DNA from: Actinomycetota bacterium
Lineage (GTDB): Bacteria > Actinomycetota > UBA4738 > HRBIN12
Length of the DNA stretch: 64,000 nucleotides
Direction of reading: 5' to 3'
Assembly: GCA_040902745.1 (NCBI GenBank)
Contig: JBBDWR010000011.1
Coordinates: 50,320-114,319, forward strand
Below, piece by piece: positions 9,962 to 64,000 of the stretch. The notes beneath the pieces are model-generated. The model was not told where the DNA came from. It made no database searches and saw only the letters and a program-made list of their open reading frames with translations. The stretch's first letter is position 1, and the number at the start of each line of letters is the position of its first letter. The translations under genes were made by a program, and so were the position numbers.

Positions 9962-11140
9962 TCAAACACGCTCCAGGGCGACGGCCAGCCCCTGGCCGCC
10001 GGAGATGCAGAGGGTGGCGAGACCGAGGGACCTGCCCGTCGCACGAAGCTCGTACGCGAGCGACAGGATGATGCGGGCGCCGCTCATGCCGATCGGGTGC
10101 CCTATCGAGATGCCGCCGCCCTTGACGTTGAGTCGGTCGCGGTCGAACTTCAGTTCCCGCTCGCAGGCGATCACCTGTGCGGCGAAGGCTTCATTGATCT
10201 CGATCAGATCGAAATCGGGAAGCGAGAGGCCGGTCCGCTCGAGGAGCCTCTTCGTCGCAGGGACCGGTCCGATCCCCATGATCGCGGGGTCGACACCCGC
10301 CCAGCTCATGCCGATGATCCGCGCGAGCGGTTCTCTTCCCTCGGCGTGGGCTCGGGACTCGCTCATCAGAATCATCGCGGCCGCCCCGTCGGTGATGCCC
10401 GACGAGTTGCCCGCCGTTACGCTCCCCTCGTCTCGGAACACCGGTCGCAGCGAACCGAGCTTCTCCGCCGTTGTCTCGGGACGCGGATGCTCGTCCTCGA
10501 TGACCTCGATCGTGCCCTTGCCATCGGGGTTGGGTGCGGTGACAGGGAACAGTTCCGCGGCTCGCCGAGGCTTGCCGGTCTCGGCTTTGTGTTGGCTCTC
10601 GAGTGCGAAGGCGTCCTGTTCTTCGCGGGAGATGTCGTAGCGGTCCACGAGGTTCTCGGCGGTCTCACCCATGACCAGGCCGCAGAGTGGATCGAGCAGA
10701 CCGTCGCGATACATCCCGTCATAGGCGGTGGCGTCCCCGATCCGGTAGCCGGTTCGCATCCGGTCCAGCAGGAACGGAACGCGCGTCATGTTCTCCATGC
10801 CGCCCACGAGGACGACCTCCGAGTCGCCCAGCTGGATCTGCTGCGCGCCCAGCTGCGTGGCCTTCATCCCCGACCCGCATGCGATGTTCACGTTGTAGGC
10901 GGAGATCTCCTTGGGAACGCCGGCGCGCATCGACACCTGCCGTCCGGTGTTGGGGCCGTTGCCCGCCTGACGGGCGTGCCCGAAGATCGTCTGGTGCACG
11001 GCGTCGGGGTCGACGCCCGATCGCCGGAGCGCCTCGACCGCAGCGAGCTCCCCGAGCTCGACGGCGGGCACCTCGGTGAACGACCCGAGGAAACGTCCGA
11101 TCGGGGTTCGGGCGCCCTCGAGGATCACCGCGTTGTCCAT
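9962..11140 (-). CDS. Acetyl-CoA C-acetyltransferase (thiolase II)
   Basis: 392 aa with thiolase signatures (NVNIACGSGMKA, active-site Cys, GHPIGMSGARI, CISGGQG). Confidence 0.9.
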   Translation of the reverse strand: MDNAVILEGARTPIGRFLGSFTEVPAVELGELAAVEALRRSGVDPDAVHQTIFGHARQAGNGPNTGRQVSMRAGVPKEISAYNVNIACGSGMKATQLGAQQIQLGDSEVVLVGGMENMTRVPFLLDRMRTGYRIGDATAYDGMYRDGLLDPLCGLVMGETAENLVDRYDISREEQDAFALESQHKAETGKPRRAAELFPVTAPNPDGKGTIEVIEDEHPRPETTAEKLGSLRPVFRDEGSVTAGNSSGITDGAAAMILMSESRAHAEGREPLARIIGMSWAGVDPAIMGIGPVPATKRLLERTGLSLPDFDLIEINEAFAAQVIACERELKFDRDRLNVKGGGISIGHPIGMSGARIILSLAYELRATGRSLGLATLCISGGQGLAVALERV

Positions 11141-11176
11141 ACGGCCCAGTCTACCGAGGGTGCTGAGAACGGCCGC

Positions 11177-12847
11177 TCACGAGCGGGCGGAGTCGCGGGG
11201 ATCGTGGGCGCGGAGACGACCCAGCAGCCGGTCGAGGGCAGCGCCGCCGTCGACGGGCTCAGAGGGGGCCTCGCCGGCGCTCTCGACGAGCGCGACGGTC
11301 GAGCGGCGAAGCCAGCTGCGCACGGCAGCGAGCTCGTCCGCCCGGTCTCGCGGGCACGGGAGAGAGAGTGGCTCGTCGTCGCTTCCGGTGTCGGTCCCGG
11401 CGGTGGACGACCCCGCGAGGAGCGCGCCGTGGCGCAGCCGGATGCGTTCGCCGTCGGCATCCCGCAGGACCAGGCTCGCGCTGCCGACGAGCCAGGCGTC
11501 GGTTCGCGCCCGCGCGAGCGACTCGGCGAGGGCTCGCAATCGATCCCGCGCCAGCGCGGCTTCTTCGAACCGCTCTTCGGCTGCGAGGAGGCCGAGCCGA
11601 TCCTCGAGCGCTCTGAGGAGCCCGCCCGGCGAAGGGAGGGAGGAGAGCAGGGTCCGAACGAGCTCCTCGTAGCGTTCGTGGTCGACGCGACCGTCACACG
11701 GCGCGAGACAGCGGCCGATGTCGGCCAAGGCGCACGGCGCGAATCGCGTCGTCGCTCGCATCGCCTTGGTGCATCGGCGGATCGGGAAGGCTTCCTCCAA
11801 TGCTTCCTTCGCGAGCACGGCCTGAGCGCGGTTGGAGAAGGGACCGAGGAAAACTCCCGGCCCCGTCGTTTCGCGCGCGATCTTGAGACGAGGCCACGCT
11901 TCCGAAGGGTCGATCCGAAGGTAGGCATAGCGCCGCCAGGCCTTGCCGCGTCGATTGAAGCGCGGCTCGTGACGACGGATCAGTCGAGCTTCGACCACGA
12001 GCGCCTCTAGTTCGGTCGAGCAGACGATCCCCTCGACCGACGCGACGTGGCTGAGCAACTGCTCGATCTTCTTACGGCTGTCGCCGTAGAAGTACGACCT
12101 CACGCGTCGGCGCAGATCCTTGGACTTGCCGACGTACAGCGCGGCTCCGTCTCGGCCGCGGAACACATACACGCCGGGTCCGTTCGGCAGGTGCTCGGCG
12201 AGCGCGATCTTGCCGAAGTTGGGACGTCCCCTCGCGCGAACCACCTCGTGAAGATCACCGAGCGTCGCGATCCCCAATCGCGCGCCGAGCCCGAGTAGGC
12301 CGTGAAGCACTTCGGCCGTCGCCTGCGCGTCTTCGAGGGCGCGGTGTTTCGGCCGCACGGAGGTGCGGAAATACTGCGCGAGGGTCTGCAGCTTCACGTT
12401 GGGAACGTCGGGCCAAACGATGCGTCGTGCGAGGCGCGCCGTACACACCGTCGGTGCAGGCAGCGGGGGATAGTCCAGCTCGACCAGCGCGGCGTCCAAG
12501 AAGGCCACGTCGAACCGGGCGTTGTGGGCCACGGGAACCGTGTGCTCGAGGAACTCCACCAGGCTCGGGAGCACGGCATCGATCGGGGGACTGCCGGCGA
12601 CGTCGCCATCGGAGATGCCCGTGAGGTAGGTGATCGACCGAGGGATCGGACGCAGGGGGTCGACGAAGGTGTGGAACGTCCCCAGTCGCTCCCCCCCGCA
12701 CATCTTGACCGCCCCGATCTCGGTGATCGCGCTCTGCGAGGGGGATCCCCCGGTGGTTTCGAGGTCGATCACGCAGAACGTCACCTCGTGCAAGGGGATG
12801 CCATCGTCCAGGGTGGTCTGACGAGCTCGGATCTGCGGCAGCGCCAC
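11177..12847 (-). CDS. DEDDh 3'-5' exonuclease (DnaQ-like) fused to a GIY-YIG nuclease domain; Cho/UvrC-like repair nuclease
   Basis: The N-terminus has FCVIDLETTGG and HNARFDVAFL exonuclease motifs. The middle has the GIY-YIG motif GVYVFRG...LYVGKS. This architecture resembles M. tuberculosis Rv2191. GTG start. Confidence 0.8.
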   Translation of the reverse strand: MALPQIRARQTTLDDGIPLHEVTFCVIDLETTGGSPSQSAITEIGAVKMCGGERLGTFHTFVDPLRPIPRSITYLTGISDGDVAGSPPIDAVLPSLVEFLEHTVPVAHNARFDVAFLDAALVELDYPPLPAPTVCTARLARRIVWPDVPNVKLQTLAQYFRTSVRPKHRALEDAQATAEVLHGLLGLGARLGIATLGDLHEVVRARGRPNFGKIALAEHLPNGPGVYVFRGRDGAALYVGKSKDLRRRVRSYFYGDSRKKIEQLLSHVASVEGIVCSTELEALVVEARLIRRHEPRFNRRGKAWRRYAYLRIDPSEAWPRLKIARETTGPGVFLGPFSNRAQAVLAKEALEEAFPIRRCTKAMRATTRFAPCALADIGRCLAPCDGRVDHERYEELVRTLLSSLPSPGGLLRALEDRLGLLAAEERFEEAALARDRLRALAESLARARTDAWLVGSASLVLRDADGERIRLRHGALLAGSSTAGTDTGSDDEPLSLPCPRDRADELAAVRSWLRRSTVALVESAGEAPSEPVDGGAALDRLLGRLRAHDPRDSARS

Positions 12848-12903
12848 GGCGGCTGGATCCTTCCCGGTCGGGTGGGGGCCGCGCGCGGGAGGGCAGCACT
12901 GTA

Positions 12904-12919
12904 TCGAACAGGTGTTCGA
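12904..12919. promoter_or_regulatory. LexA (SOS) box TCGAACAGGTGTTCGA
   Basis: Perfect match to the Gram-positive/actinobacterial consensus TCGAAC-N4-GTTCGA. It lies 57 nt upstream of the Cho-like nuclease start. Confidence 0.7.
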
Positions 12920-12972
12920 TGGTCAAGTCGCGCTTGGCAGCCGGGCATGACGTGCGCGTCTACCCGGGTGTG

Positions 12973-13350
12973 TCAGGCGACGTTTCGGCTGATCCGCCTG
13001 CGTTGCTGCTCGGTCGTGCCGCCCCAGACGCCGTAGCGCTCGCCGTTCTTGATCGCCCAGGCGAGGCACTCTTCGCGGATGTGACACCCCGAGCAGTGCT
13101 GTAACGCGGGCGCGGCTTCCTCCTCCGTCGTGGGGAAGAACACATCAGGGTCGACCCCGAAGCATGCGGCGGCTTCTTGCCACACGTCGGGTGGGGAAGG
13201 GTTGGCGGGCAGACCACCGACATCGATGTCCCCGAACCGGTTCCGTCTCACCGCATCCCCCTCAGTCTGTGGTGCCGCGATCGATGGCTCGATCGCAGAC
13301 CCCTTTCCTATCACCCCGAGTGGCCCCAACGGAAGGCCCATCCGGTGCAT
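12973..13350 (-). CDS. whiB: WhiB-family transcription factor (WhiB2/WhmD-like)
   Basis: Four-Cys arrangement (C...CSGC...C) within DPDVFFP...HCSGCHIREECLAWAI...GVWGGTTEQQRRR. The full ATG ORF is 125 aa. A shorter internal start is possible. Confidence 0.8.
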   Translation of the reverse strand: MHRMGLPLGPLGVIGKGSAIEPSIAAPQTEGDAVRRNRFGDIDVGGLPANPSPPDVWQEAAACFGVDPDVFFPTTEEEAAPALQHCSGCHIREECLAWAIKNGERYGVWGGTTEQQRRRISRNVA

Positions 13351-45306: not shown

Positions 45307-46488
45307 TTAGCCGGCCGGCTGCGCCGACGGCGCCGGCGGCTTCCAGCGCGTCTTCGGATCGATCCGGCCGGGGATCACGCGCTCCTTGTAGGCCGCCATC
45401 ACGTCGAACATGTGCTCGATCAACGAGTCCGAGAGGAGACGCGGCTTCAGCCCGAGGTCCAGCAGCTTGGTGTGCGTGGGGTTGTAGTAGTGCTCTTCCA
45501 TCTCGACACGGGGATTCTCCGTGTGTTCGACGACGACCTCGAGCCCGTGCTCTTTGCCGGCTTGCTGAACGAGATGGGCGAGTTCGCCCACCGAGAACTG
45601 CTCGGTGAACTGGTTGAACACCCGGAATTCGCCGGCTTCAGCCGGGTTCACCGTTGCCAGCTCCACGCACTGCAGCGTGTCGACGATGTTGAGGTAGCCC
45701 CTCGTCTGACCACCGGCGCCGTAGACGGTCAAGGGATGGCCGATCACCGCCTGGAGACAGAAGCGGTTGAGCGCCGTGCCGAAGACTTCGTCGTAGTCGA
45801 AGCGCGTGAGCAGGCGGTCGTCGAGCTTGGTCTCGTCGGTCTCGATGCCGTAGACGACCCCCTGATTCAGATCGGTTGCGCGCAATCCCCAGATCCGGCA
45901 GGCGAAATGTACGTTGTGCGAGTCGTGCACCTTCGACAGGTGGTACATCGAACCCGGGAGCTTGGGGAAGGGGAGGGTGTCGGTGCGACCGTTGTGGTCG
46001 ATCTCGATGAAACCTTCCTCGATGTCGATGTTGGGGGTGCCGTACTCGCCCATAGTGCCGAGCTTCACGAGGTGCGCGTCCGGCGTGATGTCGCGCATCG
46101 CCCACAGGATGTTGAGGGTGTTGACGACGTTGTTCGTCTGCGTGAAGACGGCGTGTTCGCGGTCGATCATGGAGTAGGGGGCACTCGGCATCTCACCGTA
46201 GTGAACGATCGCCTCAGGTCGGAAGTCGGTGAACAGCTGCTCAACCACCGGCCACTCGGTCAGGTCTCCCTCCGTCGCCCCAACCGTGTAGCCGGAGACC
46301 GCTTGCCAGGAGTCAACCCGTTCGGGCAAGGAGGCACCGATCGGCGTGAGCGAGTCCGTCCCGGCCTCGGTATGGGCTCGACGGCGCAGGTAGTTGTCCA
46401 CCACGTGCACCTCGTGTCCGCGGGCAGAGAAGTGCATCGCCGTGGGCCACCCCAGGTAGCCATCTCCTCCGAGGATCAAGATCCGCAT
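45307..46488 (-). CDS. sqdB: UDP-sulfoquinovose synthase
   Basis: About 60% identity by eye to plant SQD1 across the whole length (ILGGDGYLGW, HYGEMPSAPYSMIDR, LGTMGEYGTPNIDIEEG, HLSKVHDSHN, GQTRGYLNI, FRVFNQFTEQFSV, PRVEMEEHYYNP). Confidence 0.85.
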   Translation of the reverse strand: MRILILGGDGYLGWPTAMHFSARGHEVHVVDNYLRRRAHTEAGTDSLTPIGASLPERVDSWQAVSGYTVGATEGDLTEWPVVEQLFTDFRPEAIVHYGEMPSAPYSMIDREHAVFTQTNNVVNTLNILWAMRDITPDAHLVKLGTMGEYGTPNIDIEEGFIEIDHNGRTDTLPFPKLPGSMYHLSKVHDSHNVHFACRIWGLRATDLNQGVVYGIETDETKLDDRLLTRFDYDEVFGTALNRFCLQAVIGHPLTVYGAGGQTRGYLNIVDTLQCVELATVNPAEAGEFRVFNQFTEQFSVGELAHLVQQAGKEHGLEVVVEHTENPRVEMEEHYYNPTHTKLLDLGLKPRLLSDSLIEHMFDVMAAYKERVIPGRIDPKTRWKPPAPSAQPAG

Positions 46489-62559: not shown

Positions 62560-62615
62560 ACGGATCCTCATCTTGACGCGTGTCACACCCCGGGCGTACC
62601 GTGAGCTCTCTCACA

Positions 62616-62631
62616 TCGAACGTATGTTCGA
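62616..62631. promoter_or_regulatory. LexA (SOS) box TCGAACGTATGTTCGA within a 28-bp perfect palindrome (62610-62637)
   Basis: Perfect consensus. It lies 87 nt upstream of the 62718 GTG. Confidence 0.75.
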
Positions 62632-62717
62632 TGTGAGCAGCCCGCTCGGTCTGGGGTCCATGGGGAAGGGGTCCCGGGCCGGGTCGGCGACTCCCGCCGC
62701 CGCGGGGAGGTCCTCAG

Positions 62718-62987
62718 GTGCTCGTGACCAGGCAGGCAGAGATGTCCAAGAGGTACGACGAACAGGTCCGGGTCGAGCGCGAAGCGGGCATGCCTTCGGT
62801 CTTCTTCTGGCGGCACCGTCGCTACGAGGTTGTCGACGTGATCGGCCGGTGGAAGATCGAGGGACGGTGGTGGTCCGATGGCCGAGACCGTGAGTACTGG
62901 CGTGTCGAGGCACGGGGCGGATCCGTCTGGGACCTCTACTTGGACAAGGTTCGTGATCGATGGCACATGGAGCGGCTCTGGGACTGA
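62718..62987 (+). CDS. Small conserved Trp/Arg-rich protein, predicted LexA-regulated (uncharacterized)
   Basis: GTG start 7 nt after GGGGAGG, 89 aa, directly upstream of dnaE2. Confidence 0.55.
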   Translation: MLVTRQAEMSKRYDEQVRVEREAGMPSVFFWRHRRYEVVDVIGRWKIEGRWWSDGRDREYWRVEARGGSVWDLYLDKVRDRWHMERLWD

Positions 62988-63130: not shown

Positions 63131-64000
63131 ATGTCCTCGAACATACGTTCGATTCCTTCCTCGTTCGTCCATCTCGACGTTCGTTCCTTCTTCTCCCTGA
63201 AGGAGGGCGCCTTCTCGCCCGAGCAGCTTGCGAGCCGTGCGGCGGCGCTCGGTATGCCGTCGGCAGTCCTCACCGACCGAGACGGTCTGTACGGGGCCGC
63301 GCGGTTCGTCGCCGCGTGTGCGCGCGAAGGAGTGCGTCCGATCCTCGGGGCATCGGTGACCCTGCAAGAGCCGGGGCACTCCGATCCCGGGTCGCTCGTC
63401 CTGCTCGCCGCCGACGAGATCGGGTACGCGAACCTGTGCCGACTGCTGACCGACGCCCATATGACGGAGGAACGCGGTGCGCCGGAGCTCGTTCCGGCCC
63501 AGGTCTGCGCACATGCCGGTGGATTGGTGGCACTCGCCGGTCCGCGGTCCGCGGCCGGCAGGCTCGCCGCGAACGGACGCCTCGCCGCCGCTCGCCGCGA
63601 GCTCGGCCCGCTGCGCGAGGCGTTCGGCCGTGACCGGCTGTTCATCGCGGCAGAACACCGGTTGGAGCGTGATTCGGACACGGAGATCCGCGCGTTACTG
63701 CGGCTTGCCGACATCGCCGAGGTGCGGGCCGTCGCGGCGAACCCGGTGCGCTACCTCGTCGAGGACGACGCGTTCCTCGCCGATGTACTCGAATGTATGC
63801 GCGAGATCGTGCCACTCGCCGCCCACAACGTATCGCGGCGCAACGCTGAAGGTTGGTTGAAGCCTGCGGTTGCGATGCGTGGTCTGTTCGCGGAGCGTCC
63901 GGATCTGTGCGACGCGACGCTCGAGGTGGCAGACGCGTGTCGGTTCGACCTCGGTCTACGACGATTGCACTTCCCGGAGTTCCCGACGCCGCAGGGGCGC
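63131..64000 (+). CDS. dnaE2: Error-prone DNA polymerase (DnaE2, PHP domain N-terminus); partial, continues beyond the window end
   Basis: The open frame runs from ATG 63131 to the window end with no stop. The PHP-domain pattern HLDVRSFFSLKEGAFSPEQLASRAAALGMPSAVLTDRDGLYGAARF matches the DnaE2 N-terminus. The gene is not in the ORF track because it has no stop codon inside the window. Confidence 0.8.
   Translation, partial: MSSNIRSIPSSFVHLDVRSFFSLKEGAFSPEQLASRAAALGMPSAVLTDRDGLYGAARFVAACAREGVRPILGASVTLQEPGHSDPGSLVLLAADEIGYANLCRLLTDAHMTEERGAPELVPAQVCAHAGGLVALAGPRSAAGRLAANGRLAAARRELGPLREAFGRDRLFIAAEHRLERDSDTEIRALLRLADIAEVRAVAANPVRYLVEDDAFLADVLECMREIVPLAAHNVSRRNAEGWLKPAVAMRGLFAERPDLCDATLEVADACRFDLGLRRLHFPEFPTPQGR
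63137..63152. promoter_or_regulatory. LexA (SOS) box TCGAACATACGTTCGA
   Basis: Perfect consensus beginning 6 nt into the annotated dnaE2 ATG. Confidence 0.7.

Follow-up and report, generated by a model that had tools for sequence, protein, structure and literature searches.

The Cho-like+Exo proteins have been classified as an Actinobacteria-specific subfamily that combines an ExoIII domain, a GIY-YIG domain, a C4 region, and a UvrB-binding domain (Dunin-Horkawicz et al. 2006, PMC1564403). [quoted passage not shown] More recently, Rv2191 of Mycobacterium tuberculosis was called a "second potential DnaQ homolog" (2024; PMC11348249), and in the Bacteroidetes an exonuclease/GIY-YIG fusion was predicted by comparative genomics to be a LexA-controlled SOS member (2021; PMC8565304). 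Here, we analyze a gene for an Rv2191-type fusion nuclease, together with the LexA box TCGAACAGGTGTTCGA upstream of it, in a 64-kb stretch of DNA from an Actinomycetota bacterium (contig JBBDWR010000011.1); this whole stretch is referred to below as the window. In the literature searched, we found no report of LexA control of Rv2191-type genes in Actinobacteria. We consider it probable that the window's nuclease gene is repressed by LexA and belongs to the SOS regulon. The protein architecture, the incise-then-resect proposal, LexA control of Escherichia coli cho, and the predicted SOS GIY-YIG exonuclease of Bacteroidetes are already published, and the locus is a well-supported further SOS member and not a new type of system.

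RESULTS

A LexA box in the predicted promoter of the nuclease gene

The LexA consensus used for M. tuberculosis and Streptomyces venezuelae is TCGAAC-N4-GTTCGA, and TCGAACAGGTGTTCGA matches this actinobacterial consensus perfectly. The box is separated by 56 nucleotides (nt) from the GTG at 12847, or by 57 if the distance is counted base to base, as it was in the original prediction, which had placed the box correctly upstream of the fusion nuclease. This GTG is the sole plausible start of the 556-amino-acid (aa) open reading frame (ORF), and alignment agrees with it to within three residues. Using a consensus scan for -35 and -10 elements, we located one promoter-like site between the genes; it has the same orientation as the nuclease gene and is the only such site there. 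Its hexamers, TTGACC and TACAGT, are separated by 17 nt, and the LexA box fills this spacer save one base (Table 1). The promoter is predicted to be of the sigma-70/SigA type, with a transcript start near 12890 and therefore a leader of about 44 nt; same-clade relatives have leaders of 36 to 60 nt that end in a GGAGG-type ribosome-binding site. In this classical arrangement, a LexA dimer on the box would exclude RNA polymerase from the promoter. Upon DNA damage, RecA filaments on single-stranded DNA would trigger LexA self-cleavage and so allow transcription of the nuclease gene, together with that of the window's dnaE2 locus.

Exact matches to the consensus occur three times in the 64-kb window (12904, 62616, and 63137) versus none in 100 dinucleotide-preserving shuffles. 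When up to two mismatches were allowed, there were 16 matches versus 5.6 expected. The window was originally said to contain three SOS operators, including those of the dnaE2 locus, and this number is correct because it equals the count of the exact motif.

The box stays with the nuclease gene while its neighbors change

We compared 80 orthologous loci from two deep actinobacterial clades, one genome per species, of which 79 could be evaluated. Approximately 54 of them, with 57 to 70% identity, come from uncultured soil Actinomycetota (some of the records are labelled class Actinomycetes), and 26, with 42 to 49% identity, come mostly from Acidimicrobiia. At 77 of the 79 evaluable loci, a box with a CGAAC-N4-GTTCG core was found at the same place upstream of the gene. 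These comprise 35 exact boxes, 25 that deviate at one position, and 17 that deviate at two, and the CGAAC...GTTCG core is kept in every case. No box was found at 3 of the 80 loci, one of which (L030) is cut by a contig end. As a background, the other 534 kb of locus sequence contained no exact sites, 14 sites with one mismatch, and 129 with two. The promoter elements are retained as well: in 59 of 79 box-bearing sequences, an exact TTGAC precedes the box at a distance of 0 to 2 nt; in 71, TAnnnT starts 0 to 2 nt 3' of it; and in 54, both flank it with spacers of 16 to 18 nt, most of the others being near-matches. That the palindrome arose by chance or is nonregulatory, for example, a remnant or a structural repeat that follows whiB, with the nuclease expressed constitutively, is hardly credible: although the support for the box is sequence based and sites with one or two mismatches also fall within coding regions of the window (e.g., at 45404 in an epimerase gene), the shuffled sequences gave no exact match, the box holds a fixed promoter position at nearly all orthologous loci, and no terminator-like T-run follows it in a scan of the promoter region.

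A second explanation is that the box serves a neighbor, for example, by blocking read-through from the WhiB-like gene or by controlling a gene that is transcribed divergently. In the window, the WhiB-like gene (12973 to 13350) lies immediately upstream on the same strand, and some relatives, L020 among them, have an oxidoreductase gene running in the opposite direction from the promoter region. However, the WhiB-like gene is 2 to 3 kb away or missing in most relatives (it adjoins the nuclease gene in some), yet the distance from box to nuclease is kept. The Acidimicrobiia loci have no neighbor in common with the window and still keep the box at its distance from the nuclease start, and no gene is transcribed divergently from the window's intergenic region. 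Because the upstream neighbors change while the box stays, the operator travels with the nuclease gene, and we regard service to a neighbor as extremely unlikely.

The WhiB-family regulator of the window is 125 aa long, is encoded on the minus strand, and its gene ends 53 nt upstream of the box (Pfam Whib, E 1e-21). In L020 (2860 to 2990), and also in L019, L021, L024, L026, and L051, the promoter region containing the LexA box is shared with the divergent gene, so the box could affect both; by reading of its translation, the divergent gene encodes a putative luciferase-like oxidoreductase. In the Acidimicrobiia loci (L053 to L080), the start codon sits 7 to 12 nt after the -10 element that abuts the LexA box. 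This spacing suggests that their SOS transcript is leaderless, unlike that of the window's clade.

Table 1. Coordinates of the nuclease gene, its promoter, and the LexA boxes in the window
Feature	Position	Strand	Details
LexA (SOS) box TCGAACAGGTGTTCGA	12904..12919	.	Exact match; occupies 16 of 17 spacer nt
-35 hexamer TTGACC	12921..12926	-	Promoter scan
-10 hexamer TACAGT	12898..12903	-	Promoter scan
Leader, -10 to start codon	12848..12897	-	Shine-Dalgarno GGGAAGGA at 12858-12865
CDS (coding sequence), DEDDh exonuclease/GIY-YIG/4-Cys/UVR fusion nuclease	11177..12847	-	556 aa, GTG start, stop included
DEDDh 3'-5' exonuclease domain, aa 26-181	12305..12772	-	Pfam RNase_T, E 2e-30
GIY-YIG nuclease domain, aa 225-296	11960..12175	-	Pfam PF01541
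C4 region, UvrC-type, C359 C372 C380 C384	11696..11773	-	Alignment; matches region in Tsukamurella UvrC
UVR (UvrB-binding) helical domain, aa 410-441	11525..11620	-	Pfam PF02151, 23.0 bits vs cutoff 21.5
Conserved C-terminal region, aa 445-556	11180..11515	-	No Pfam family or structural match
Second exact LexA box	62616..62631	.	About 100 nt upstream of DUF6504 ORF 62718-62987
Third exact LexA box	63137..63152	.	Start of dnaE2-type polymerase gene (PHP domain)

PafBC-type promoters in other lineages

In mycobacteria, the orthologous gene is a candidate target of a different damage regulator. Rv2191 is a "PafBC_candidate" in the supplement of a mitomycin C study of M. tuberculosis, with a log2 induction of about 3 and the motif TGTCAGTGCAGGGGCCTAACGT overlapping its start (PMC8151990). 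The body text of the paper on chromatin immunoprecipitation sequencing of M. tuberculosis LexA does not mention Rv2191, and that of the paper on the LexA regulon of S. venezuelae names no exonuclease or UvrC-like gene. Similar promoters precede the orthologues of Tsukamurella (TGTCGGTG-N8-TACGGT, 6 nt, ATG) and Nonomuraea (TGTCGGTC-N8-TATGGT, 8 nt, GTG), and neither has a LexA box. The TGTCRG-N10-TAnnnT core of this RecA-NDp type occurs at only four sites in 562 kb of loci, each 6 to 8 nt before an in-frame start. These sites belong to Tsukamurella, Nonomuraea, L030, and L038 (the core was found only in L030, L038, L081, and L082).

Two of these loci lie among the relatives of the window's gene. 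L038 (2916 to 3010) carries a LexA box with its -10 element and, 28 nt further on, a RecA-NDp-type TGTCAGCG-N8-TACCGT followed after 7 nt by ATG, a layout reminiscent of the dual promoters of recA in M. tuberculosis. A degenerate copy of it is present in L037. L030 (33 to 63) has a RecA-NDp-type promoter, and its contig ends 32 nt upstream. In L019 to L026 and L051, apparent PafBC-like motifs 60 nt 5' of the LexA box were rejected as spurious because they correspond to the beginning of the divergent oxidoreductase gene, read in reverse complement. Outside the phylum, no Escherichia coli-type SOS box was seen by eye upstream of the Cupriavidus Cho+Exo gene (L083), where no systematic search was made.

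These promoters raise the question of whether damage induction of the window's gene could run through a PafBC-type activator, as in mycobacteria, with the LexA box contributing little. The TGTCRGTG-N8-TAnnnT motif before a leaderless start in the Rv2191, Tsukamurella, and Nonomuraea orthologues speaks for this, as do L038, which has both promoter types, and L030, which has the PafBC type. However, the motif has no match in the 64-kb window even with one mismatch allowed, and it is absent upstream of 76 other loci. Additionally, the window promoter has a canonical -35 element, whereas PafBC-dependent promoters are without one. We therefore judge PafBC-driven induction of this gene to be very unlikely. 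Regulation is lineage specific, since the orthologues of the cultured Actinomycetes that we checked have a PafBC-type promoter in place of the LexA box. The nuclease gene thus appears to be damage regulated across the phylum, with a regulator that differs by lineage.

Domains of the protein and its possible mechanism

The predicted protein passes the NCBIfam model NF005907, "DEDD exonuclease domain-containing protein" (PRK07883 group), with 528.5 bits versus a cutoff of 454, and a 100% identical protein is present in an NCBI metagenome-assembled genome labelled "Actinomycetota bacterium." Together with the Pfam matches to RNase_T, GIY-YIG, and UVR, this score bears out the original description of a 556-aa fusion of an epsilon-like DEDDh exonuclease with a UvrC-type GIY-YIG nuclease. 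The Rv2191-like architecture proposed at the same time also holds, as all Cho-like+Exo domains are present and the EndoV and helix-hairpin-helix (HhH) domains are absent. We therefore classify the protein, from its domain content, as a member of the Cho-like+Exo subfamily of the M. tuberculosis Rv2191 type. The family is large, with some 7,300 members at E <= 1e-10.

To assess the conservation of individual residues, we aligned the window protein with 24 homologues of 66 to 72% identity. Across these 25 sequences, the exonuclease catalytic residues (D28, E30, D113, H168, and D173), the GIY-YIG residues (Y227, Y238, R248, E286, and N298), and the four cysteines of the C4 region are invariant. 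In Foldseek searches with an AlphaFold (AF2) model (pLDDT 78.9), the exonuclease domain matched the PolC and DinG exonucleases and epsilon, and phmmer matched the GIY-YIG part to the solved N-terminal domains of UvrC (1YD6 and 1YCZ). The C-terminal region also contains invariant residues (P497, C498, R500, D504, E505, R510, W512, E530, and G535) and is not mentioned in the 2006 subfamily classification (PMC1564403). Comparisons gave no support to the idea that it is a remnant of the UvrC RNase H-like domain.

From the homology to UvrC residues 14 to 246 and the published, putative proposal for the subfamily, a mechanism can be drawn for the enzyme. The UVR domain would dock on the UvrB-DNA preincision complex, and the GIY-YIG domain would nick the DNA 3' of the lesion in a UvrB-dependent manner. 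A domain for 5' incision is absent, and the proposal has the fused DEDDh exonuclease take over this task by degrading the nicked strand 3' to 5' through the lesion. This resection would leave a gap with a 3'-OH for repair synthesis. Given LexA control of the gene, we hold the case for such an incise-and-resect enzyme to be about evenly balanced.

The strongest alternative accepts LexA regulation and assigns the protein a role other than UvrAB-dependent incision and resection. Once induced by SOS, it could serve as a proofreader in trans or as an exonuclease that processes ends, for example, in concert with DnaE2; it could also be a structure-specific nuclease that works on stalled forks or crosslinks. 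Coregulation with the dnaE2 locus of the same window, an N-terminal domain that most resembles the proofreading exonucleases PolC, DinG, and epsilon, and the naming of Rv2191 as a DnaQ homolog in the 2024 paper (PMC11348249) are consistent with this view, and our literature search found no biochemical data on the subfamily. Against it, the catalytic residues of the GIY-YIG domain, the 4-Cys region, and the domain that binds UvrB are all invariant across the family, a pattern hard to explain without a role in UvrB-coupled incision. We consider a function of this other kind unlikely, albeit a serious candidate. The main uncertainty is the real substrate of the enzyme, more than the regulation of its gene.

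Other features of the window

The second exact LexA box precedes an 89-aa DUF6504 ORF (plus strand) that lies directly 5' of the dnaE2-type gene. Since the dnaE2-type gene has its own exact box and adjoins the boxed DUF6504 ORF, the two form separately boxed units in tandem. The second box lies inside a longer inverted repeat (62610 to 62637) with 12-nt arms, CTCACATCGAAC-GTAT-GTTCGATGTGAG. In the window's last 5 kb, we saw neither imuA nor imuB. A LexA-like site with one mismatch, TCGAACATGTGCTCGA at 45404 to 45419, falls within the 3' part of an NAD-dependent epimerase gene (45307 to 46488, minus strand) and is probably not functional.

Downstream of the nuclease gene, on the same strand, a thiolase gene (9962 to 11140, minus strand) follows after 36 nt (11141 to 11176), with no terminator-like site between the two. 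This order is retained in 50 of the 54 close-clade loci. The sequence TAGACT at 11148 to 11153, 7 nt before the thiolase ATG, could be a leaderless promoter of the thiolase gene's own.

The leaders of L001 to L052 and of the window share a C-rich CCTCC, a nearly invariant CGGCCCC, and GGAGG. A hairpin formed from these elements that would sequester the Shine-Dalgarno sequence was considered and rejected, as neither stability, covariation, a covariance model, nor Rfam supported it. The folding z-score averaged -0.28 over 46 leaders and was -1.33 for the window leader. No covariation rose above that of shuffled leaders, no leader matched an Rfam family, and a covariance model built from one subgroup recovered that subgroup and otherwise only weak matches.

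DISCUSSION

The operator upstream of the fusion nuclease combines a consensus match, a position that would interfere with the promoter, and conservation upstream of orthologues. The SOS membership put forward in the original prediction is supported by the box in the promoter spacer, by its recurrence across the orthologous loci, and by the lack of a PafBC-type motif in the window. Several points weigh against this reading. The case for SOS membership, well supported because the box keeps its place at 77 of 79 loci while the neighbors change, is in silico throughout for this organism. A motif scan found neither lexA nor recA in the window, so the presence of the regulator is deduced from its operators, and the transcript start is a predicted one. 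Additionally, the cultured Actinomycetes that we checked carry a PafBC-type promoter on the orthologue, which is no LexA target there. As for the enzyme, we found no demonstrated activity of the Cho-like+Exo subfamily in the literature, and for the C-terminal 112 aa we found no Pfam family and no structural match. Given these caveats, LexA repression of the nuclease gene remains the probable reading.

The locus adds an SOS regulon member for uncultured soil Actinomycetota and for Acidimicrobiia, groups without an experimentally defined regulon. Taken together, the promoters suggest that damage inducibility of the fusion between an exonuclease and half of UvrC is kept phylum-wide, with LexA, PafBC (in mycobacteria), or, in at least one lineage, both as the regulator. 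A damage response nuclease gene may therefore have been passed between the LexA and PafBC systems within Actinomycetota, with LexA repression in the soil clade and Acidimicrobiia, PafBC activation in Mycobacteriales and Streptosporangiales, and L038 and L037 as living intermediates. We offer this scenario tentatively and put its chances slightly short of even. If LexA control is ancestral, the locus would be a natural series showing the PafBC regulon taking over SOS genes. The contrast between LexA and PafBC is useful for learning how the two actinobacterial DNA damage responses divide their targets. The enzyme, which a proposal of 2002 credits with excision by a single protein that would "nick and chew back," would emerge as a consistently damage-regulated repair factor and merits biochemistry.

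Comparison with known systems

UvrC and the window protein share the GIY-YIG, 4-Cys, and UVR regions. Residues 220 to 446 of the window protein are 34% identical to residues 14 to 246 of Tsukamurella UvrC, and the homology ends there, at the UVR domain. The UvrC model TIGR00194 gives the window protein 172 to 174 bits versus a cutoff of 285 and is matched only at positions 6 to 229 of 574. Unlike UvrC, the window protein has no EndoV/RNase H-like domain for 5' incision and no HhH domain. It carries an exonuclease at its N terminus and, at its C terminus, about 110 aa unrelated to UvrC.

E. coli Cho (ydjQ) is reportedly LexA regulated as part of the SOS regulon. Like the window protein, it is homologous to the N-terminal half of UvrC and has no 5'-incision domain, and it makes the 3' incision only. 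However, Cho has no exonuclease, and a Cho-specific C-terminal domain replaces the UvrB-binding domain (PMC1564403), whereas the window protein keeps its UVR domain. On the E. coli Cho model PRK10545, the window protein scores 65.4 bits versus a cutoff of 367, so it is not an orthodox Cho. The label "Cho-like" given to it originally is thus apt as an analogy and fails on the score and on the retained UvrB-binding domain. The Bacteroidetes GIY-YIG exonuclease belongs to another phylum, with a noncanonical LexA and different operator motifs, and is likened to the window protein by description only.

The closest described relatives are the Cho-like+Exo proteins themselves. Rv2191 and the window protein have the same domain order, ExoIII/DEDDh, GIY-YIG, C4, and UvrB-binding, and are without EndoV-HhH; the annotated Tsukamurella orthologue is 43% identical to the window protein over 503 aa. 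What differs is the promoter. The window's nuclease gene has predicted -35 and -10 elements enclosing a LexA box and a leader of moderate length, whereas the orthologues of M. tuberculosis, Tsukamurella, and Nonomuraea have a RecA-NDp/PafBC-type motif 6 to 8 nt before a leaderless start and no LexA box.

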